The notes below the pieces were generated by a model, which was not told where the DNA came from, ran no database searches, and saw nothing but the letters and a program-made list of their open reading frames with translations. The position numbers were made by a program, and so were the translations under genes. Shown here one piece after another: positions 7,899-34,727 of a DNA stretch of 34,727 bases (positions are counted from its first letter, which is position 1; each line of letters starts with the position of its first letter). Where the stretch lies: IMG/VR virus record IMGVR_UViG_2585427750_000024; one strand, written 5' to 3'. The DNA comes from a virus (taxonomy: Duplodnaviria > Heunggongvirae > Uroviricota > Caudoviricetes).

Positions 7899-8858
7899 AT
7901 GAAAATTTGTATCGACGACGGCTCCACCAACATCAAGCTGGCATGGACTGAGAACGGCGAACGCCGCAACGCCATCAGCCCGAACAGCTTCAAGTCGGAA
8001 TGGTCTGCGCCGTTCGGTGGCACGCAGCCCGCGAACTACATGCTTGATGGCGTGCGCTATGGTTTTGATCCGGTCAGCGATCGCTTTGTCCAGACGACCG
8101 ACACGCAATACCAGTACAGCGATGTGAATATAATTGCCATTCATCACGCGCTGGTCAAATCAGGCATCACACCACAGGAAGTGGATGTGGTTGTCACCCT
8201 GCCACTGAGCGAGTATTTCGATACAAACGCACAGCCGGACATGGCCAACATCAACCGCAAAAAAGCGAACGTCATGCGCCCGGTGGAGTACCAGAACGGC
8301 GAAGCATTCACTATCCGTAACGTACGGGTTATGCCTGAATCCATTCCGGCTGGCTTTAAGGCACTGGCTGACATGAGTCCGTTTGAATCCCTGCTGATTG
8401 TGGATTTGGGCGGAACCACTCTGGATGTGGCAAAGGTTCAGGGGCAACTGGCAGGTATCAGCCAGGTGTTTTGCGATCCACACGTGGGCGTTTCTCTGAT
8501 GGCCGATGCCGTACTGTCGGTGATGGCCACTAACGGTATGCGCACCAGTCACCACATCGCCAATACCATTATCGAACATCGCCATGATGAAGCCTGGCTG
8601 CGCCAGCACATCCACAATGACGCGCATTACGCCAGCCTGATGGCGGTTATTCGTGAAAAGGAAGAAACACTGAAACAACGCGTGATCCGCGCGCTGGCGG
8701 GTTTTTCGGGTTACGGGCGGGTGATGGTTGTCGGTGGAGGGGCGGAGATTGTGGCACCCGCTATCCGCGAAGCCTGCGGAGTTAATGCGACTTTCATCGC
8801 GGACGGGGTGCCACAGTTTGCTCTGGTTAATGGGCTGTACGCAATGGACAAGGAGTAA
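7899..8858 (+). CDS. parM: ParM/StbA-like actin-like segregation ATPase (type II partition)
   Basis: 319 aa; MKICIDDGSTNIKLAW, ISPNSFK.EW, VMPESIPAG, IVDLGGTTLD, VMVVGGGAE, ALVNGLY all align with recalled plasmid R1 ParM. Confidence 0.85.
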   Translation: MKICIDDGSTNIKLAWTENGERRNAISPNSFKSEWSAPFGGTQPANYMLDGVRYGFDPVSDRFVQTTDTQYQYSDVNIIAIHHALVKSGITPQEVDVVVTLPLSEYFDTNAQPDMANINRKKANVMRPVEYQNGEAFTIRNVRVMPESIPAGFKALADMSPFESLLIVDLGGTTLDVAKVQGQLAGISQVFCDPHVGVSLMADAVLSVMATNGMRTSHHIANTIIEHRHDEAWLRQHIHNDAHYASLMAVIREKEETLKQRVIRALAGFSGYGRVMVVGGGAEIVAPAIREACGVNATFIADGVPQFALVNGLYAMDKE

Positions 8859-9866: not shown

Positions 9867-10266
9867 CTGCACAATAGTGCACAAGTTTGCACAATTTTTT
9901 TGAACGACTTTTTACCCTTCCGGCCCGCATGGCGGCTGGATCCGTCAAGGATCCGTGCGTGCACAAAAAAACGCGCTTTTTCTGCGCGCAGGTGACGGGG
10001 GAACAGCCCGCGTTTCAGGGGGTAAATAGCATCCCCTGAACGATGTCGCAGCGACACAACAGAATGGCTGTATTTCTCACGCTGAGCGTGAAAAAGACGT
10101 GAGGGCTTTTGATTTGATGGGTGGCAGATAAGGCCGTCAAAATCGCACTGAGGCGGCGAGAACATGCAGTCAACGCGGTGGGATTGCGTAAGAGTCTGAC
10201 CGCCGATGATGACAATAAGCAGAAAAGCGTCGTGAAATTATCTGATTGATACAGGAGCTGGAGAGT

Positions 10267-10291
10267 CGGGGCATAAATTTTTTATGCCCCG
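10267..10291 (-). terminator. Hairpin 3' of Q (CGGGGCATAAA-TTT-TTTATGCCCCG), candidate terminator
   Basis: 11-bp perfect inverted repeat with GC-rich base and A/T-rich loop, 27 bp downstream of the Q stop; no long U-tract after the stem. Confidence 0.4.
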
Positions 10292-10317
10292 GCGAAGCAG
10301 CAGACAAGCGAAGCGCG

Positions 10318-11364
10318 TCAGGATGTGGGCTGGGTATCTAGCAGTGCGTAAGGGTTAAAGCGGATCACCTCTTCGCCAAGCCAGTCATTGATGTGCTTCA
10401 TGGCCTCCATGACGGGCATCAGCTCGTTAATTGCGTAAACCCGCGCGGCCTTCTCCACATCACCAAACGCACTTTTTTCGCCCGGCATCGCCCCCATCAG
10501 TTGCGGCGGAACGCGGTGCGCAGCCAGCACATCATCACGGGATGCCGCCTTAACATTCATGAACTCATCCTTTGCAGTGATCTGCTGGAACGGCAAAATT
10601 TGCACACCTTCTTTGCCCCCGTTGGGCGCATGGATGAGTACGTTTTTAAACGCACCACCACCACGCGCGCCCTGTAACGTTTCTTTCAGGGAGTCCATGC
10701 TTTCGCGGTTTACCTGCGCTGCACCGATGTAGATGATGCACCCGGCGTGGGATCCGTTGTCGTAGTACAGTTTTCTGAACATGTCCGCCGAATGAGAAAG
10801 GCTGGCCGAGAGTAATGCGCCAAGATATTCCGGCATGCCGTAGATTTCCTGGTTAATATCCGGATTCATCAGGTGGCACACTTTGCCAGGGCGAAACTGG
10901 AACGCGTCCTTGCCATCCTGCACATACCACCATGATTCAAGATCGCTTCCGCGTCGCATGTATTTCGCCAGGGCGTGCCGTAATTTAAGCGGTTCGCCGA
11001 GCATATTGCTTCTAAGCTCAAGGAATGCGTTACCGAACACAAACCAGTCCAGCGCCAGCGCCGAGAAATCCTGCCGGGAAAGCAGCGGGTGCGGGATGTA
11101 GCAACCGAGTAATACATTGCGCTTAAAGTAAAGCGCAGACTGATGCCAGGACGTTTGCCGGGCTGCTCTTGCCAGACCGTACCAGTCCACCGGGGTTTCA
11201 TACCACCGTCCGTTATCAGCACAGTACATATTGTCCAGCAGGTCATGCCCGGTCAGGCGATAAGGACCATCAAATGTGAATGCACTGAGCGATGATTCTT
11301 TCCTGAGCGCATCAGCGAGATCAATGCGTGAACTCATGCGCACTTTTTTATTTTTTCTGCTCAT
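10318..11364 (-). CDS. Q: Portal protein, P2 gpQ-like
   Basis: 348 aa; size and position match P2 Q, adjacent to and co-oriented with the terminase gene. Confidence 0.85.
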   Translation of the reverse strand: MSRKNKKVRMSSRIDLADALRKESSLSAFTFDGPYRLTGHDLLDNMYCADNGRWYETPVDWYGLARAARQTSWHQSALYFKRNVLLGCYIPHPLLSRQDFSALALDWFVFGNAFLELRSNMLGEPLKLRHALAKYMRRGSDLESWWYVQDGKDAFQFRPGKVCHLMNPDINQEIYGMPEYLGALLSASLSHSADMFRKLYYDNGSHAGCIIYIGAAQVNRESMDSLKETLQGARGGGAFKNVLIHAPNGGKEGVQILPFQQITAKDEFMNVKAASRDDVLAAHRVPPQLMGAMPGEKSAFGDVEKAARVYAINELMPVMEAMKHINDWLGEEVIRFNPYALLDTQPTS

Positions 11365-14129: not shown

Positions 14130-15182
14130 ATGAATCTGGTGATGTCAGATATTACCCGCAACAAGCTGGGTTGCTATATGGCGCAGCAGGCGTCGCTTAA
14201 CAATATCCCGGTATCTGCACTGGTATCGCGATTTACCGTGGAACCCGCGGTGCAGCAGCGTTTTGAAAACGCCTCAAAGGAAAGTACCGAATTTACGAAA
14301 AGAATTAACGTGATCGGCGTGACCGACCAGAAAGGCGAAAAAATCCTCCCGGACACCACCGGGCCAATTGCGCGCACGAATAGCAGTTATGACGGCATCA
14401 AACGCCGTAACCCGAATAACGTGATCGATATGAAGTCTCGTCAGTACCAGTGCGAACAGGTGAACTACGATACCTTTATTTCGTACCCACAGCTTGATAC
14501 CTGGGCGGCCCACAGCGATTTTCAGTCCCGTATCAGTACACAGATCGCCCGGCAGGTAGCGCTTGATCGCATCATGATTGGCTTTAACGGCACATCCCAC
14601 GCCTACGAGTCTGATTTTCACACCAACAAGCTGCTTCAGGACGTTAACGTGGGCTGGCTGGAGCACATCAGAACCGATGCCAGCGAGCGCGTAATGAATG
14701 ACGTGACGCTGACCTCCCGCAACATGGACAACACTGTGGCGCACGCGGGTAAGTATGCGAATGCCGATGCTCTGGTACAGGATGCGCGCTCATCCCTGCT
14801 GGATGAATGGCACAAGGAAGCTGACGACCTCGTGGTGATTATGGGGCGCAACCTGTTTAACTCGCTGCGTCTGCCCGTGCTGAACAGCATCAGCGGCCAG
14901 AATCCCAATGCGGAATTACTTGCCGGGCAGCTCATCCTGTCATCGCGCACCATTGGCGGGCTGGGCGTGTTCCTTGCGCCGTTCTTCCCGGATGCAACGA
15001 TGCTTATCACCTCGTTCAACAACCTGTCGATTTACTGGCAGAAAGGTTCAATGCGTCGTCTGATGAAAGACGAGCCGGAATACAACCGCATCGCCACCTA
15101 CCAGTCCATCAATGACGCTTATGTCGTTGAAGACTATGGCAAGTGCGCGATGGTCACTGGCCTGAAGTTCGCCGACAGCTAA
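14130..15182 (+). CDS. N: Major capsid protein, P2 gpN-like
   Basis: 350 aa; FTVEP...RINVIGVTDQKGEKI resembles P2 N; position O-N-M. Confidence 0.9.
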   Translation: MNLVMSDITRNKLGCYMAQQASLNNIPVSALVSRFTVEPAVQQRFENASKESTEFTKRINVIGVTDQKGEKILPDTTGPIARTNSSYDGIKRRNPNNVIDMKSRQYQCEQVNYDTFISYPQLDTWAAHSDFQSRISTQIARQVALDRIMIGFNGTSHAYESDFHTNKLLQDVNVGWLEHIRTDASERVMNDVTLTSRNMDNTVAHAGKYANADALVQDARSSLLDEWHKEADDLVVIMGRNLFNSLRLPVLNSISGQNPNAELLAGQLILSSRTIGGLGVFLAPFFPDATMLITSFNNLSIYWQKGSMRRLMKDEPEYNRIATYQSINDAYVVEDYGKCAMVTGLKFADS

Positions 15183-16826: not shown

Positions 16827-17150
16827 GTGAGCACCATTCAAACAGGGATCACAGAGCAGGTTATTGCGTGGCTCTTTGACCACCTGCCAACGGTGTATGC
16901 AGTAGGCGCGGCTGTCAGCATTTCCGCGCTGATGAGTCTTTATGACGGACGAACACTGGTTCAGACCGTAACGGGATCGCTGGCGTGCGGCGTTCTTGCC
17001 ATGGCCGTGGCCGGGTCGCTGCGCTTCTTCGGGATCCCTGAGGATGCAGTGACGTTTTTTGGTGCCTCAATCGGTTTTATGGGCGCAGAGAAAGCACGCG
17101 ACAAGGTTATTGCAATATTTGATCGCAGGGTGAAGGAGAGGAACGAATGA
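16827..17150 (+). CDS. Holin (GTG start)
   Basis: 107 aa from GTG at 16827 preceded by GGGGGGAG; 2-3 predicted TM helices; first gene of the lysis cassette. Track ORF 16608..17150 is the same frame extended upstream. Confidence 0.6.
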   Translation: MSTIQTGITEQVIAWLFDHLPTVYAVGAAVSISALMSLYDGRTLVQTVTGSLACGVLAMAVAGSLRFFGIPEDAVTFFGASIGFMGAEKARDKVIAIFDRRVKERNE

Positions 17151-17539
17151 GCAACACATTTAAATTCAGCAGCCGAAGCGAAAAGAATTTGCAGGGTGTA
17201 AATCCTGATCTGGTGAAAGTGACCCGACGGGCGCTGGAAATCTCGGAAGTGGATTTTGGTATCACCGAAGGATTGCGCAGTCGTTATCGTCAGAAGCAGC
17301 TCGTGACCACAGGCAAGAGCCAGACCATGAACAGTCGCCATCTCAAAGGGCATGCCGTGGATGTTGTGGCTTATGTTGGCAGCCAGGTGTCATGGGAATG
17401 GCCGCTGTACGAAAAAATCGCAGCAGCATTCAGACAGGCCAGCCGGGAACTGAATATTCCGGTGGAATGGGGCGGCGACTGGAAGACCCTGAAAGACGGA
17501 CCGCATTTTCAGTTACCACACGGAGCCTATCCGGCATGA
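17147..17539 (+). CDS. Endolysin, peptidase M15-type (L-Ala-D-Glu/D-Ala-D-Ala metallopeptidase family)
   Basis: 130 aa; SRHLKGHAVDV and EWGGDW motifs typical of Zn-dependent M15/VanY-like peptidases; between holin and spanins. Confidence 0.7.
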   Translation: MSNTFKFSSRSEKNLQGVNPDLVKVTRRALEISEVDFGITEGLRSRYRQKQLVTTGKSQTMNSRHLKGHAVDVVAYVGSQVSWEWPLYEKIAAAFRQASRELNIPVEWGGDWKTLKDGPHFQLPHGAYPA

Positions 17540-17943
17540 AGCTCTGGCCCACGCTTGGCGTCGCTTTCCTTCTGATTGCCGCATGGGGAACATCCATGCG
17601 TCTGTCGTGGTCGCTGGGCCGGGAGAACGCCAGAAACGAAGCGCAGGCCAGCACCCTGAAAAGTACCGTCGACACACTGAATATCATCAGCGCCGGGGTA
17701 CAGGATATGCAGCAGGTGCTGGCTCAACTCCGCGCGGACAATCAGCAACGCAATCAGGACGGAGAGGTAAGACGTGAACAGCTACGCAACGATATTGCAA
17801 AAGATGAATGCGCCCACGCTTTGCCTGACGCTCGTTTTACTGACAGGTTGCGCAGGCACGCAGAACGCGCCACGGCCAGCGCCGTCAGTCCGGCTTATAC
17901 CGCAGACGCTGACCATGCCGGTAACGCCTCCCCCCTTCCCTGA
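17536..17943 (+). CDS. i-spanin (Rz/LysB-like)
   Basis: ATG 17536 overlaps the endolysin stop; N-terminal TM (MKLWPTLGVAFLLIAAWG) then charged coiled-coil-like region; o-spanin embedded in +1 frame. Confidence 0.6.
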   Translation: MKLWPTLGVAFLLIAAWGTSMRLSWSLGRENARNEAQASTLKSTVDTLNIISAGVQDMQQVLAQLRADNQQRNQDGEVRREQLRNDIAKDECAHALPDARFTDRLRRHAERATASAVSPAYTADADHAGNASPLP

Positions 17944-18085
17944 CCAACCCACATGGGGAAACCTCGGAATATGGGGCGACCGCCTTCTGGATGCACTGGA
18001 AACCTGTAACGCGGATAAACGGGCCATTGCTGAACTGGATAAGAGAATAGCCGAACTGACACACCAGACGGGAGTAACACAATGA
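17804..18085 (+). CDS. o-spanin lipoprotein (Rz1/LysC-like), embedded/overlapping the i-spanin
   Basis: Lipobox LVLLTGCAG, Pro-rich mature region; track start GTG 17774, ATG 17804 more likely. Confidence 0.55.
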   Translation: MNAPTLCLTLVLLTGCAGTQNAPRPAPSVRLIPQTLTMPVTPPPFPDQPTWGNLGIWGDRLLDALETCNADKRAIAELDKRIAELTHQTGVTQ

Positions 18086-19959
18086 CCAGTAAGAACTTTG
18101 CACTGATTACAGCCATGACACAGGCTGAACTGACTCAAAAGGTGAATGAACATCTTGCGAAAGGGTGGCATCTTCAGGGGGAGACGCGGGTTGCCTACGA
18201 ACCCGGCACCCCGTGGTATCTAATGCAGGCAATGGTGGCCGATGGCACTACAGACATCTCACCTGATTCCCCCCAGCACGGCAGCGTGCCGGAGTGGTAT
18301 TACGTGGTGGTACTTGCTGGTCAATCCAATGCCATGTCATATGGTGAGGGAATGCCGCTGCCGGATTCTTACGATGCGCCCCACCCACGCATTAAGCAAC
18401 TGGCCCGTCGCAACACAGTGACTCCCGGTGGTAAAGCATGCGCATTTAACGACATCATTCCGGCAGATCACTGCCTGCATGATGTTCAGGATATGAGCGC
18501 ACTGAATCACCCGAATGCAGACCTGAGCAAAGGGCAGTATGGCTGTGTCGGACAGGGCTTGCATATTGCCAAACGCCTGTTGCCTTACATTCCACAGAAT
18601 GCCGGGATTTTACTGGTTCCATGCTGTCGTGGTGGTTCGGCATTCACCCAGGGCGCGGAGGGGACATTCAGCGAGTCCACAGGAGCCAGTCAGGATTCGG
18701 CTCGCTGGGGGGTGGGTAAACCTTTATATCAGGACCTGATTTTGCGCACGAAGGCCGCATTGCAGAAAAACCCAAAAAACATGCTGCTGGCCGTATGCTG
18801 GATGCAGGGCGAATTTGACATGAGCGCCGCTACGTACTCACAGCAACCTCCGCTGTTTGCGGCCATGCTGAAACAGTTTCGTGCGGACATTACCGAGTTT
18901 AACACGCAGTGTCATGGAGGCAGAGCGGCAAGTGTGCCATGGATTTGTGGTGACACGACGTATTACTGGAAAAACACCTACGGCACGCAGTACGACACCA
19001 TTTACGGGGCGTACAAAAACAGGGAGAGCGACAACGTTTTCTTTGTGCCATTCCTGACCGATGGTAGTGGCAACAATACCTCCACCAACGCACCAACGGA
19101 AGATCCGGATGCTGCAAGTGAGGGATATTACGGTTCGGCATCCCGAACGAACAAAAACTGGGTATCATCAAATCGCCAGACGCATTTCAGTTCATGGGCG
19201 CGCAGGAGCATTATTCCGGATCGTATGGCAACCGCTATTCTGAACGTAGCCGGTCGCACCTTAGCCTTCATCAGTGGTAAGGCACCGGAAATCAAACCCT
19301 CGCCCGGCGGCAACACGCCATCGGGTCCGTCTGCAGATACGTCCGTTCGCACAATCTCCCTGCTGCCGGCAGCCGGAGAGGCTGCTGCGCAGGGCTGGAG
19401 CATTAAGGATGGCGGAATTCAGTTGTCAGATGGTGTATTTAAGATCACCAAGCAGAGCAATAAAACCTGGTCCCTGACGCATCCGGTGGATGACGCAATT
19501 ACCCTGCTGACACAGGGCGGCAGACTGACCTGTAAGTTCCGCCTGTCAGGCGCACTGACCAACAATCAGTTCGGGCTGGGGATTTATCTGTATACGGATG
19601 CTCCCGTTCCTGATGGTGTGGCGATGACGGGTACCGGTAATCCGTTCCTGATGTCGTACTTCACTCAGACCACTGACGGCAGAGTGAATCTGATGCATCA
19701 CAGGAAAGCCGGAAACACGAAGCTGGGGGAGTTCGGCGATTACGGTAACGACTGGCAGACGCTGGAGCTGGTGTTCACCGCCAGCAGTGCCACGGTTACT
19801 CCGAAACTGAATGGAGTGGCTGGCCCGGCATTCCAGGTCATAAAAGACAGTCTGACACTGGGGCTGAATGCACTGACGCTGACGGATATTACCAAAAATG
19901 CAACGTATGGCGTTGAGATAGAAAGTCTGGTGCTGGAAATAAATAGTCCTGCAGCGTAA
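18082..19959 (+). CDS. Prophage NanS-p-like sialate O-acetylesterase (DUF1737 N-domain + SASA/SGNH esterase domain)
   Basis: 625 aa; N-terminal MTSKNFALITAMTQAELTQKVNEHLAKGWHLQGE (DUF1737-like) then VVVLAGQSNAMSYGEG (GQSN motif); start overlaps o-spanin stop; no counterpart in P2. Confidence 0.65.
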   Translation: MTSKNFALITAMTQAELTQKVNEHLAKGWHLQGETRVAYEPGTPWYLMQAMVADGTTDISPDSPQHGSVPEWYYVVVLAGQSNAMSYGEGMPLPDSYDAPHPRIKQLARRNTVTPGGKACAFNDIIPADHCLHDVQDMSALNHPNADLSKGQYGCVGQGLHIAKRLLPYIPQNAGILLVPCCRGGSAFTQGAEGTFSESTGASQDSARWGVGKPLYQDLILRTKAALQKNPKNMLLAVCWMQGEFDMSAATYSQQPPLFAAMLKQFRADITEFNTQCHGGRAASVPWICGDTTYYWKNTYGTQYDTIYGAYKNRESDNVFFVPFLTDGSGNNTSTNAPTEDPDAASEGYYGSASRTNKNWVSSNRQTHFSSWARRSIIPDRMATAILNVAGRTLAFISGKAPEIKPSPGGNTPSGPSADTSVRTISLLPAAGEAAAQGWSIKDGGIQLSDGVFKITKQSNKTWSLTHPVDDAITLLTQGGRLTCKFRLSGALTNNQFGLGIYLYTDAPVPDGVAMTGTGNPFLMSYFTQTTDGRVNLMHHRKAGNTKLGEFGDYGNDWQTLELVFTASSATVTPKLNGVAGPAFQVIKDSLTLGLNALTLTDITKNATYGVEIESLVLEINSPAA

Positions 19960-19982: not shown

Positions 19983-20450
19983 ATGCTTAAGACAAACAGC
20001 CTCCGGAAGGGCATGATTCATGGGTGTCGCTGGTGTCAGGCCAACCCGGAAAAATTCACCATTTTCGTGGAGAGCGGCAACATTGAAACGACCGGAGAAA
20101 CGCCCTCGTTTGTTTACCGCTATCAGATGGTGATGTTTGTCATGGATTACGCCGGGGAGCTGGACGACCTCACGCTGCCGCTACTGGCGTGGTTATCCGA
20201 AAATCAGCCGCAATTGTTGCTTAATCCGGAGCGTAATCAGGACATCAAATTCTCCGCCGTTATCAATGACGATGACAGCGCCGATCTCCTGTTTACGCTC
20301 CCTCTGCGGGAACGCGTTCGCATCACGCGCAGCAGTCAGGGGGCACCGCAGGCAGAACACCTGCAGGAGCCAAAACCCCGTCTGCCATCTTCCGAAGGCG
20401 ACTGGTCGCATGTATTCCAGGATGTGACGTGGGGTGAAAGCGATGGATAA
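19983..20450 (+). CDS. R: Tail completion protein, P2 gpR-like
   Basis: 155 aa; position before S and V; size as P2 R. Confidence 0.75.
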   Translation: MLKTNSLRKGMIHGCRWCQANPEKFTIFVESGNIETTGETPSFVYRYQMVMFVMDYAGELDDLTLPLLAWLSENQPQLLLNPERNQDIKFSAVINDDDSADLLFTLPLRERVRITRSSQGAPQAEHLQEPKPRLPSSEGDWSHVFQDVTWGESDG

Positions 20451-26182: not shown

Positions 26183-26788
26183 CTATTTATACAATACAAC
26201 ACCGCTCTTTTTAGTTATATATGTGCAGTTCGATGGTATATCTTTATTTATAAAAGACATTGCACCTATTTTTACATTATCCCCAATTTTACGTGATAAT
26301 CCAATGATGCAACAATTAGCTCCGATATCAACGTTACTACCAATTTTTACTCTTGAACCAGGCATGTCACCATCTATCTGTCCAATGGTAGTATTCTGTC
26401 GTAACACCAGATTTTCACCAGCATCAACAGCAAAATGAACAACAATTCCAGCATGATGGGGAATTGTTAACCCTTTTCCAATATTTGCGCCCAATCCAAT
26501 TTCACAACCAAATTTGTTAATTATTTTACTGTTTAACTTTTTGGCTGCTTTCTTATGTAATTTATTACCATTAATATACATTTCGTTAGCCAACCGCCAC
26601 CAGAAAAGGAAATTCCGGTTACGCTGTTTTTTCTCTCTTAAAAGCCTCCAGATATCCATACGTTTCCGCCGAATTACTTCATATTTCCAGAAGTTTTTTA
26701 AATTAGTAGAGTCCCCAAATAAAACAAAGTGAATTGCCATTAAGTAAGACAGCACGATAATCTCCTTAATTATTATTTCAGACCACAC
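26183..26788 (-). CDS. Hexapeptide-repeat acetyltransferase (serine-acetyltransferase/WcaB-like left-handed beta-helix), moron
   Basis: 201 aa (GTG start; ATG alternative at 26740); repeated [LIV]-G-x4 hexapeptides (GCEIGLGANIGKGLTIPHHAGIVV, IGSNVDIGANCCIIG, IGDNVKIGAMSFI); AT-rich island 26140-26911 at the P2 Z/fun position. Confidence 0.7.
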   Translation of the reverse strand: MWSEIIIKEIIVLSYLMAIHFVLFGDSTNLKNFWKYEVIRRKRMDIWRLLREKKQRNRNFLFWWRLANEMYINGNKLHKKAAKKLNSKIINKFGCEIGLGANIGKGLTIPHHAGIVVHFAVDAGENLVLRQNTTIGQIDGDMPGSRVKIGSNVDIGANCCIIGLSRKIGDNVKIGAMSFINKDIPSNCTYITKKSGVVLYK

Positions 26789-32487: not shown

Positions 32488-32644
32488 AGCTTCAGCCCCT
32501 TGTATCCGTTAAATGATTCGGCAACAATCATCACCCACCACGCGCGTAATCTCACCCCTGCGCCGTTCTCCCGCCACGGCGACAACAAAAAGCAGTAACC
32601 CCCTATGCACGCACATGCGACCATGCCGCACAGGGAGGGAACAG
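32488..32644. promoter_or_regulatory. Divergent promoter region between FI (leftward) and D (rightward)
   Basis: 157-bp intergenic; contains ACAACAAAA (32582-32590) and TAACCCCCT (32596-32604), both shared with the P/O region; RBS GGGAGGG before D ATG 32645. Confidence 0.35.
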
Positions 32645-33745
32645 ATGACCGATACCACCATGCAATTGCTCAGTCAGAGCACAGACCCCGTGAAAATGCC
32701 GGATTTTGATATTCTCGCGGAGGGGGAAACACTGTCCGGCGTGGCAGAGCGCCTGATGAGCCTGTCACTGACCGACAACCGGGGATTTGAAGCGGACCTG
32801 CTCACCATCACGCTGGATGATGCGGATGGTCAGTTGCAGCTACCGCCACGGGGCGCGCGCCTGACGGTTCTCATTGGCTGGAAAGGAGAACCGCTGACAG
32901 AAAAAGGCACTTACATTGTTGATGAAATCGCTCACGAAGGACCGCCGGACAGGCTGACTGTTTCAGCCAGAAGCGCAGATTTTCGGGATGAATTTAACGT
33001 TAAACGTGAGGTGTCCTGGCATGATGTGACCGTTGAGCGCGTGGTATCCGCCATCGCTCATCGGTACGGTCTGAAACCACAAATCAGCGAAATGCTGATG
33101 GATATTGAAATCGACCACGCCGACCAGACCGAAGAAAGCGACATGTCCTTCCTTACGCGCATGGCGGAAATGCTGGGCGCAATCACTACGGTAAAAAGCA
33201 GTAATCTGTTATTCATCATGCCAGGCGGTGGCGTGAACGCACAGGGCCAGCCGTTGCCATCGTTCGCCATCACGCGCAGCAGTGGCGATCGCCATCAGTT
33301 CCGCATTGCTGACCGCGAAGCGTATACGGGGGTACGTGCTTACTGGCTTGATCTTAATTACGGGAAAAAGAAAAAAGTCAGCGTGAAACGCCGCAAACCG
33401 AAAAAGGAGAAAAGCAGCAGCCGTGAAGGTGACTATATGGAAGGTGCGGAAGGCAACGTGTTTGTGTTACGCAAGACTTATCAGAACGAGCAGGCAGCAA
33501 GACGTGCAGCGGCGGCAAAGTGGCAGCAGCTACAACGCGGAGCCGCATCATTCTCCATCACGCTGGCGCGTGGACGCGCAGAACTCTATCCCGAAATGCA
33601 TGGCACGGTGACAGGCTTCAAAAGTGACATCGATAATCAGGACTGGATTATTGCAAAAGCCGAGCACACCATTGATAACAGCGGCTTTACCACACAGCTT
33701 GAGCTTGAAGCAAAAATCCCGGAATGGATAGCAGAAACAGAATGA
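32513..33745 (+). CDS. D: Tail protein D (P2 gpD-like); probable true start ATG 32645
   Basis: Track ORF 410 aa; from 32645 (MTDTTMQLL...) 366 aa; SLSLTDNRGFEADLLTITLDDADG...SARSADF resembles recalled P2 D. Confidence 0.85.
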   Translation: MIRQQSSPTTRVISPLRRSPATATTKSSNPLCTHMRPCRTGREQMTDTTMQLLSQSTDPVKMPDFDILAEGETLSGVAERLMSLSLTDNRGFEADLLTITLDDADGQLQLPPRGARLTVLIGWKGEPLTEKGTYIVDEIAHEGPPDRLTVSARSADFRDEFNVKREVSWHDVTVERVVSAIAHRYGLKPQISEMLMDIEIDHADQTEESDMSFLTRMAEMLGAITTVKSSNLLFIMPGGGVNAQGQPLPSFAITRSSGDRHQFRIADREAYTGVRAYWLDLNYGKKKKVSVKRRKPKKEKSSSREGDYMEGAEGNVFVLRKTYQNEQAARRAAAAKWQQLQRGAASFSITLARGRAELYPEMHGTVTGFKSDIDNQDWIIAKAEHTIDNSGFTTQLELEAKIPEWIAETE

Positions 33746-34144: not shown

Positions 34145-34419
34145 GTGGGAAACAATAAAGTGAAATTAGGAAGAAATGATAAGTGCTGGTGTAATTCAGG
34201 ACTTAAGTATAAAAAGTGCCATCTTGGTCGAGATCGTGAAACTCCGGTATCCAAAGCCGAGGCACTGAAATTTTCAAAGTCTCTCTCGCAGAGAAAGGCA
34301 TGTTATGCGCCAGCATCCATGCACGAAGATTGTGATAAACGCATCGTTCAGGCGCATACGATATCTAAGAGCAGTAGCCTTAAGGCGATCGCCGACTCCA
34401 GCAATCACGTCATGGGGGT
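34145..34419 (+). pseudogene. SEC-C-motif protein gene truncated by IS insertion
   Basis: GTG start; N-terminal KCWCNSGLKYKKCH (SEC-C-like metal-binding motif); reading frame runs into the IS terminus at ~34420, so track ORF 34145..34597 is chimeric. Confidence 0.4.
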
Positions 34420-34727
34420 TGGATTTGCCCCTATATTTCCAGACACCTGTTATCACTTAACCCATTACTGGCCTGCTGCCGCAGATATTCCCGTGGCGAG
34501 CGATAACCCAGTGCACTATGCGGATGCCATTCGTTATAATGCTCGAACGCCTCTGCAAGGTTCTTTGCTGCCGTTAACCCGTCTGGTTTGGGCATGATAC
34601 TGATGTAGTCACGCTTTATCGTTTTCACGAAGCTCTCTGCTATGCCGTTACTCTCCGGACTCCGCACCGCCGTGTTCTTCGGTTCAAGCCCCAACATCCG
34701 GGCAAACTGCCGTGTTTCATTAGCCCG
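34420..34727 (-). mobile_element. IS3-family insertion sequence (IS2-like), partial: terminal inverted repeat and 3' end of transposase orfB; continues beyond window
   Basis: Element terminus begins TGGATTTGCCCC at 34420; minus-strand ORF 34431..34697 encodes ...[24 protein letters not shown]..., typical IS3-family (IS2 InsD-like) C-terminus; truncated by window end. Confidence 0.7.

Follow-up and report, generated by a model that had tools for sequence, protein, structure and literature searches.

What is an esterase of the NanS-p family, discussed almost only as an accessory factor of Shiga toxin (Stx)-converting lambdoid prophages, doing in the late operon of a P2-type phage? The question is raised by IMG/VR virus record IMGVR_UViG_2585427750_000024, a caudoviral stretch of 34,727 nucleotides (nt; the window), in which a gene for a 625-residue protein lies between the o-spanin gene lysC and the gene of the tail completion protein gpR. 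Our explanation, to which we assign a probability of about 0.8, is that this NanS-p-family sialate 9-O-acetylesterase is a conserved accessory module of a subgroup of P88-like (Xuanwuvirus) Escherichia coli prophages: it would be made late, depend on lysis for its release and be tethered to the phage head through its N-terminal DUF1737 domain, and its body is renewed by recombination. The identification as a late-expressed, lysis-dependent NanS-p esterase is held with high confidence.

The window gene encodes a NanS-p-family protein

Profile searches, with all Pfam matches above the curated gathering cut-offs, placed DUF1737 at residues 4–53 (28.8 bits, cut-off 24), SASA at residues 75–271 (44.3 bits, cut-off 24.8) and DUF6645 at residues 476–586 (66.4 bits, above its cut-off). 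The whole protein aligns end to end with phrog_143 (E = 0, 1077 bits). Among solved structures, residues 69–388 match the E. coli NanS/YjhS esterase (PDB 3pt5, E = 2e-124), and residues 430–622 match the C-terminal domain of “NanS-p” (6yp6, E = 4.5e-31). An earlier reading of the letters and open reading frames (ORFs) of this DNA, the sequence-only reading, had proposed a DUF1737 plus SASA architecture and NanS-p membership; these searches confirm both and add DUF6645, which had gone unmentioned.

The GQSN motif occupies residues 80–83. Its serine, which the sequence-only reading took to be catalytic, is the predicted catalytic residue Ser82 (nt 18325–18327) and is invariant in an alignment of eight P2-type and lambdoid homologs, as are Asn83, Gln242-Gly243-Glu244, Asp246 and His368, the predicted catalytic histidine within THFSS (nt 19183–19185). 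The reading frame and all catalytic motifs are intact in every copy examined. The linker that joins DUF1737 to the esterase domain is hypervariable, with 0–22% identity among non-identical alleles. Both the sequence and a structural model depict the N-terminus as a folded hydrophilic domain, with no signal peptide. Judged from its sequence, the protein is a NanS-p in every respect, having the SASA core, DUF1737, DUF6645 and a place in a prophage late region.

Chromosomal NanS works in the periplasm and belongs to the nan regulon. The window protein shares its catalytic SGNH/SASA domain, with GQSN and HFSS conserved; the solved NanS chain (337 residues) aligns with the esterase core only and offers no counterpart to DUF1737 or DUF6645. 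Both 5-N-acetyl-9-O-acetylneuraminic acid (Neu5,9Ac2) and the sialic acids of mucin are de-O-acetylated by enzymes of the NanS-p family, which in strains EDL933 and O104:H4 also support growth on Neu5,9Ac2 (PMC8065619, PMC5923452, PMC10462455). Activity on Neu5,9Ac2 and on mucin has been reported for NanS-p enzymes from EDL933 and for five from O104:H4 C227-11 phi-cu (PMC8065619). By analogy, the window protein probably acts as a sialate 9-O-acetylesterase on Neu5,9Ac2 and O-acetylated mucin sialic acids. The sequence-only reading had suggested 9-O-deacetylation of mucin sialic acids; this agrees with the demonstrated activity of the family (PMC8065619) and is, for that reason, known rather than new. 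Because the five O104:H4 alleles are active and strain C227-11 carries a P2-type esterase copy, the P2-type variant was probably already among the enzymes assayed. The P2-prophage copy of O104:H4 has the protein accession WP_000202135.1.

The esterase is a common module of P88-like prophages

Taken as a whole, the window is a complete P2-type prophage: it has an integrase, gpA, a portal, a terminase, a capsid protein of the P2 family, a tail fibre and gpD. Pfam assignments of its ORFs follow the P2 gene order (Q-P / O-N-M-L-X-holin-endolysin-lysB/C-R-S-V-W-J-I-H-G), and the late region is about 96% identical in nucleotide sequence to Escherichia phage P88 and its relatives (Xuanwuvirus, Peduoviridae). 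The host phage is a P88-like prophage of gut E. coli.

P88 and its close relatives align with the window in two pieces and have no esterase gene at the lysC–gpR site, which agrees with the earlier statement that P2 leaves this position empty. Near-identity to P88 extends up to about 18029, 18 codons before the lysC stop, and resumes at about 20030; a query spanning the junction likewise breaks near 18029 in genomes that lack the esterase gene. The module delimited in this way brings its own lysC 3′ end and its own gpR 5′ end, which points to homologous recombination between P2-type phages rather than to a fresh insertion.

The lysC–esterase junction was found in 376 of 5,426 complete E. coli genomes. 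Another 663 genomes have the same lysC type without the esterase, so that carriers make up about 36% of such prophages. Among the carriers are O104:H4 (2009EL-2050 and C227-11), O25b:H4-ST131, O26 and O111, and RefSeq names the gene “DUF6645 domain-containing protein”. The phage vB_EcoM-705R2 is another P88-like carrier of the esterase. IMG/VR loci were scored by the pattern of the lysC/ATG junction, many of them being truncated, and the exact junction was present in 26 of 26 contigs (L010–L035), with either the window allele or its 86%-identical variant.

The same slot is occupied in a divergent P2-type phage (L036), whose gpN is 62% identical to that of the window and whose gene encodes a 656-residue DUF1737-SASA-DUF6645 protein. 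The phage collection held no close DNA relative of L036, and its host would be E. coli, judging from the name of its protein cluster. The shared slot argues for a long-standing and conserved association with P2-type phages. What the sequence-only reading presented as an addition to one phage is a common module, found in these hundreds of genomes and in a second P2-type lineage. In L036, about 400 nt (9972–10372) part the esterase from gpR and include an opposite-strand ORF of 90 residues (10050–10322); the corresponding spacer in the window is 23 nt.

A constant P2-type N-terminus and an exchangeable body

Identity to other alleles changes sharply along the gene. DUF1737 is 94–100% identical among the close P2-type copies (window, O104:H4 and contig L033); that of the window is 56% identical to L036 and just 20–31% identical to the lambdoid alleles. 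The esterase domain is 84–85% identical to the type found in phages 434 and YYZ-2008, against 67% for that of phi24B. For the lectin domain, amino acid identity is 97% with 434 and YYZ-2008, 85% with the other P2-type copies and 33% with L036.

Scanning the alignment by sliding window and by run length revealed a 520-bp tract of perfect nucleotide identity to lambdoid phage 434, which was isolated from Paris sewage in the late 1950s; the esterase core (18288–19250) is only about 83% identical to the same phage. On this sequence evidence, the tract is a very recent recombination (gene-conversion) patch between unrelated phage families. Compared with the P2-type copy of O104:H4, the window is identical between 18030 and about 18467 and thereafter drops to about 80–88% identity, and its differences from the P2-type copy PS1 are confined to a patch at about 19575–19745.

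The 5′ part of the gene behaves otherwise. The P2-type DUF1737 nucleotide allele occurs in 376 genomes, exactly those with the lysC junction, and is at least 99% conserved in 367 of them. It was never found in a lambdoid setting, though 2,246 genomes carry some esterase body. A protein-database search with the 69-residue N-terminal domain returned only truncated fragments of the same allele. In a one-genome-per-species collection there was a single, weak match to the P2-type DUF1737 (28 residues, 54% identity), at 8001–8084 of L009, a contig of a Hyphomicrobiaceae (alphaproteobacterial) metagenome-assembled genome (CAYOEI010000309.1).

As read from these alignments, the lysC 3′ end, DUF1737 and the gpR 5′ end are P2-specific, with the 5′ end of the gene fixed to the phage family, and the esterase body has been patched repeatedly by homologous recombination with nanS-p copies of co-resident lambdoid prophages. 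With no nucleotide homology upstream of the body, exchange with lambdoid copies is limited to the body itself.

The gene belongs to the late operon

The esterase ATG (18082–18084) and the LysC stop TGA (18083–18085) share bases as ATGA, so that the overlap with the o-spanin stop and the P2-type late operon position described in the sequence-only reading both hold. The further claim, that the gene closes the operon, does not. The gene lies mid-operon: upstream are genes for gpL, gpX, holin, M15 endolysin, DUF2570 i-spanin and LysC o-spanin (Pfam/PHROG), and downstream, after a 23-nt spacer that carries a GGAGAG ribosome-binding site, are genes for gpR, gpS and gpV (Pfam). No terminator was found on the + strand between the esterase gene and gpR, and the GC-rich hairpin that stands 3′ of the lambdoid copies is absent, which fits read-through from the esterase gene into gpR.

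A search for a promoter of its own gave three promoter-like matches against 4.5 expected, nothing above chance. The only nearby candidate, at 18056–18083 (9/12 match), was rejected, its -10 element ending within the start codon and promoter-like sites being no commoner than in shuffled sequence. Since no promoter signal rises above chance and the GC content of the gene is that of the adjoining genes, we infer that the esterase gene is a translationally coupled member of the late operon, made alongside the head, lysis and tail-completion proteins. The esterase would then be made only in lytic growth, together with the virion and lysis proteins, and would reach its substrate only once the cell lyses, because an enzyme without a signal peptide needs lysis to exit.

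The known lambdoid NanS-p proteins (933W L0105/Z1466, phi24B vb_24B_21/gp84, VT1-Sakai H0032, 434 CPT_434_71 and YYZ-2008 gp42) likewise have the order DUF1737, SASA/SGNH, DUF6645, and are leaderless late products. Their genes lie in the Q-stx-(nanS-p)-S region with a downstream hairpin of their own, in contrast to the ATGA-coupled window gene in its lysC–gpR slot, from which transcription would continue into the tail-completion genes.

A third setting is provided by Mu-like prophages. Their esterases (P0070 and P0107; 689 residues) have a homologous body, about 62% identical over 89% of the L036 protein, and, unlike the window protein, an unrelated N-terminus of about 110 residues with no DUF1737 and no PHROG match. 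The genes lie after the tail-fibre and Gin-type invertase region, away from lysis genes. Such esterases are found in E. coli prophages at L041 9001–11070 and in L042 and L043, 3′ of baseplate, tail-fibre and invertase genes; small DUF1378 and DUF826 ORFs follow them, and both of these families also follow nanS-p in phi24B.

The sequence-only reading had noted that the family sits beside lysis genes in lambdoid phages, which is correct, and had generalised this linkage across phage lineages, which the SASA-DUF6645 esterases of the Mu-like prophages contradict. Its deduction of release at lysis stands in so far as a leaderless enzyme exits only on lysis. The argument from linkage is weak, because the lambdoid gene merely sits in the Q-dependent late transcript, and the phi24B homolog is a virion protein.

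Does DUF1737 anchor the enzyme to the capsid?

In phi24B, according to a cryo-EM preprint of 2026, gp84 is among the strongest virion bands; its DUF1737 (residues 2–57) forms a hexamer that plugs the capsid hexon pores through a loop “tooth”, Tyr42, and its esterase and lectin parts are later cleaved off within Ser/Pro-rich linkers (bioRxiv 10.64898/2026.04.10.717836). An AlphaFold2 (AF2) model of the window domain, with a predicted local distance difference test score (pLDDT) of about 90, has a strand at residues 5–11, a helix at 14–26 and strands at 29–40 and 43–53. This predicted topology of one helix and three strands, followed by a disordered Ser/Pro-rich linker, is that described for phi24B gp84, a member of the same family.

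The nearest neighbours of the model of residues 1–69 in a fold search were other DUF1737 proteins. Structural neighbours of DUF1737 also included giant-virus proteins (Yasminevirus, Harvfovirus, Edafosvirus, Terrestrivirus and Hyperionvirus) and many single-domain phage proteins. Foldseek of the PDB with the N-terminal model gave no significant match in a set from which the phi24B structures (9XLP and others) were absent.

In the alignment, the anchor loop of phi24B falls opposite YEPGTPWY, the tip of the window hairpin, and no segment is better conserved between the two P2-type lineages than the hairpin EPG[TV]PWYLMQAMV. Neither Tyr42 nor the SSP motifs of phi24B are conserved in position, the window having YEPGTPWY and ISPDSP, and phi24B has a capsid protein of another family (Phage_capsid_3, T=9) with no relation to P2 gpN. 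P2-type phages have kept DUF1737 as they diverged, and the domain has diverged about as much as the capsid protein (56% vs 62% identity to L036). The N-terminus varies by phage family on a portable body, with a P2-type DUF1737, a lambdoid DUF1737 and an unrelated module in the Mu-like prophages. Between phi24B and VT1-Sakai, which have different capsid families, the bodies are 96–99% identical and the DUF1737 domains 64% identical, with a differing loop; the P2-type allele occurs only alongside P2-type capsids. The fold match, the conservation of the hairpin and the family-specific N-termini fit an N-terminal virion-attachment module.

A precedent for accessory proteins on such capsids is P4 Psu, which decorates gpN hexamers, so that the hexamer centres of P2-family gpN can take an accessory decoration protein. 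Psu is unrelated to the esterase, lacks an enzymatic domain and attaches to the small T=4 capsids of the P4 type.

By analogy with phi24B gp84, the P2-lineage-specific DUF1737 would tether the enzyme to the phage head at gpN hexons. The virion would display a mucin-modifying enzyme, perhaps shed later by proteolysis in the linkers. Homologous recombination with lambdoid nanS-p renews the enzyme body, and the P2-specific 5′ end stays constant. Stated in full, the proposal is that the P2-type DUF1737 lineage displays the esterase-lectin on the gpN (T=7) capsid, with a warhead swapped with lambdoid and Mu-like prophages and an attachment module kept within the family. We advance it tentatively; capsid display in P2-type phages as such may be given a chance of roughly one in three to one in two.

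Several points weigh against this proposal. The DUF1737 domains of phages 434 (gpE family) and YYZ-2008 (HK97-type, with a fused protease) are 86% identical, and the capsid proteins of the two phages have no detectable similarity. gpN is 94% identical between carriers and the non-carrier P88, with no obvious capsid adaptation, and P2 heads are T=7, without a flat face-centre hexon. On the T=9 capsid of phi24B, the only hexons to which gp84 binds are the flat ones at the face centres (bioRxiv 10.64898/2026.04.10.717836). DUF1737-like folds occur in giant viruses too, so binding to HK97-type hexons is not the sole role of the domain, and the exclusive link between the P2-type allele and lysC, as seen in the genomes, can be explained by the mechanics of recombination alone. 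Virion association in P2-type phages is argued by analogy with phi24B. As to the catalytic residues of NanS itself, we take these to be Ser19 and His301.

Alternative explanations

Some of these points speak for a soluble enzyme, in essence the view taken in the sequence-only reading. The esterase would then be a non-virion cytoplasmic cargo, freed by the lysis of some lysogens and acting as a public good, in that conversion of Neu5,9Ac2 to N-acetylneuraminic acid (Neu5Ac) feeds sibling lysogens; DUF1737 would serve folding, oligomerisation or nothing in P2-type phages. We consider this a serious possibility, if somewhat short of an even chance. It would accommodate the DUF1737 allele shared by 434 and YYZ-2008 despite unrelated capsids, the near-sameness of the capsid protein in carriers and non-carriers, T=7 heads without the flat hexon used in phi24B, and the lack of a signal peptide, which makes release dependent on lysis. 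NanS-p alleles, moreover, give a copy-number-dependent growth gain on Neu5,9Ac2 in EDL933 and O104:H4 (PMC8065619, PMC5923452). However, the sole direct structural evidence on DUF1737 is of capsid binding, gp84 being a major virion band in phi24B (bioRxiv 10.64898/2026.04.10.717836), and retention of the domain across two P2-type lineages at capsid-like divergence argues that it has a function. The two accounts also overlap, since a capsid-bound enzyme that is later shed would be a public good as well.

A role in modifying or destroying receptors, like that of the haemagglutinin-esterases of some animal viruses, is improbable. The enzyme would de-O-acetylate O-antigen, K-capsule (for example O-acetylated polysialic acid) or colanic acid, and so aid adsorption or free progeny from debris. 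This was raised as an open possibility in a review (PMC8065619); an esterase displayed on the virion would be well placed for it, and the same prophage carries an O-acetyltransferase-like hexapeptide moron (26183–26788) that could modify surface polysaccharide. Yet the core closely resembles NanS (E = 2e-124), an enzyme known to act on 9-O-acetyl sialic acid, whether free or bound in glycans, and the body is 84–97% identical across phages with different tails and receptors, a P2-type myovirus and a lambda-like siphovirus. Carriers span many serotypes, including O104, O25b, O26 and O111, and activity on bacterial glycans is without any report. Most doubtful of all is a passive hitch-hiker, which would have no role for the P2-type phage and would persist only through the essential operon around it and through repeated repair by gene conversion, with lambdoid copies as donors. 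That about 64% of prophages with this lysC type do without the esterase, such phages being viable (P88, 503458 and Chuche), and that patchwork recombination with lambdoid alleles is frequent, would suit it. Against it stand the intact frame and catalytic motifs of all copies examined, the conservation of the DUF1737 allele (at least 99% in 367 of 376 genomes) and the same architecture in a lineage with a 62%-identical capsid protein; a neutral 1.9-kb insert in a size-limited P2-type genome would, besides, quickly be lost.

Feature coordinates and other features of the prophage

The features discussed above are collected in Table 1.

Table 1. Coordinates in the window of the esterase gene, its domains and the genes and tracts that bear on it (aa, amino acids)
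Feature	Position	Strand	Basis and remarks
Exchangeable module relative to esterase-free P88	18030..20030	+	Alternative lysC 3′ end (18 codons), esterase, 23-nt spacer, alternative gpR 5′ end (about 16 codons)
NanS-p-type sialate O-acetylesterase gene	18082..19959	+	625 aa, ATG start; ORF, Pfam, PHROG, PDB 3pt5 and 6yp6 matches
P2-type DUF1737 domain (aa 1–55)	18082..18246	+	Pfam; AF2 model, pLDDT about 90
Linker 1 (aa 56–68), Ser/Pro-rich (TDISPDSPQHGS)	18247..18285	+	Predicted disordered; pLDDT <50 for aa 56–69
SGNH/SASA esterase domain (aa 69–390)	18286..19251	+	3pt5 match; catalytic-motif alignment
Linker 2 (aa 391–432), Pro/Ser-rich	19252..19377	+	Alignment, per-domain identity
C-terminal lectin-like jelly-roll (DUF6645)	19378..19956	+	Pfam; 6yp6 match
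520-bp tract of perfect nucleotide identity to lambdoid phage 434	19263..19782	+	Sliding windows and run lengths along the alignment
P2-family major capsid protein gpN	14130..15182	+	Pfam Phage_cap_P2, E = 1e-115; hypothetical partner of DUF1737
Holin (Phage_holin_3_1)	16827..17150	+	Pfam, PHROG; start taken from annotation of L005
M15 peptidase endolysin	17147..17539	+	Pfam Peptidase_M15_4, phrog_465 endolysin
LysB-like i-spanin (DUF2570)	17536..17943	+	phrog_214 Rz-like spanin, E = 1.5e-40; coordinates from RefSeq annotation of L001 and L005
LysC/Rz1-like o-spanin	17774..18085	+	Lipobox LLTGC; Pfam LysC 52.3 bits; stop overlaps esterase ATG
gpR tail completion protein	19983..20450	+	Pfam P2_Phage_GpR, E = 1e-37; next gene, same operon

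A putative O-acetyltransferase accompanies the O-acetylesterase in this prophage. The gene at 26183–26788 (- strand) encodes a 201-residue hexapeptide-repeat acyltransferase in a low-GC island (about 0.38 vs about 0.55), between the tail-fibre assembly gene and gpU, a classic P2 moron position. Its best matches are to O-acetyltransferases of the EpsC, CysE and WcaB type, far below the cut-offs, and its RefSeq homolog is called “serine O-acetyltransferase”. That it is a sialic-acid O-acetyltransferase of the NeuO/NeuD type paired with the esterase was rejected, as NeuD scored 30 bits against a cut-off of 161.

Directly after the gpA replication gene, 7899–8858 (+ strand) encodes a ParM/StbA-type actin-like segregation ATPase, followed up to about 9174 by a small partner gene that is annotated as a partitioning/stability protein in L001 (strain PS1Thumoskin9, the closest E. 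coli relative). This pair may point to maintenance in the manner of a plasmid, either as a working option or as what is left of it. The gpD-like region of L001 (34820–36934) is shortened and adjoins an opposite-strand DUF3800 gene; in the window, gpD is an intact ORF of 410 residues at 32513–33745. Beyond gpD, at the right edge of the prophage, lies a 150-residue ORF (34145–34597, + strand) with an N-terminal SEC-C metal-binding motif.

Significance

The esterase itself is ordinary, being of a known and characterised family, common in public genomes and annotated. The one thing that sets it apart is its P2-specific N-terminal domain, of the kind that anchors the enzyme to the capsid in phi24B. 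In the open literature searched there was no description of a NanS-p esterase in the P2-type phage family. What is new are the boundaries of the module, the P2-specific DUF1737 lineage, the second P2-type lineage whose esterase gene fills the same slot, and the evidence of gene conversion with lambdoid alleles. As a case of modular exchange between unrelated prophages this is of modest interest, and it would be of more interest only if the P2-type DUF1737 is a gpN capsid anchor.

A further copy of the esterase, in a P2-type prophage, is present in about 7% of complete E. coli genomes, the O104:H4 outbreak lineage and ST131 among them, and this copy matters for counts of nanS-p dosage and for clean deletions. 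The mosaic gene is a concrete case of gene conversion between unrelated co-resident prophages, in which a family-specific N-terminus is joined to an exchangeable esterase-lectin body. If DUF1737 does serve as a capsid anchor, P2-type virions would carry a mucus-modifying enzyme, with a bearing on the persistence and movement of phages in gut mucus, and capsid-displayed mucin-editing enzymes would be a shared modular trait of temperate gut coliphages rather than a peculiarity of Stx phages.

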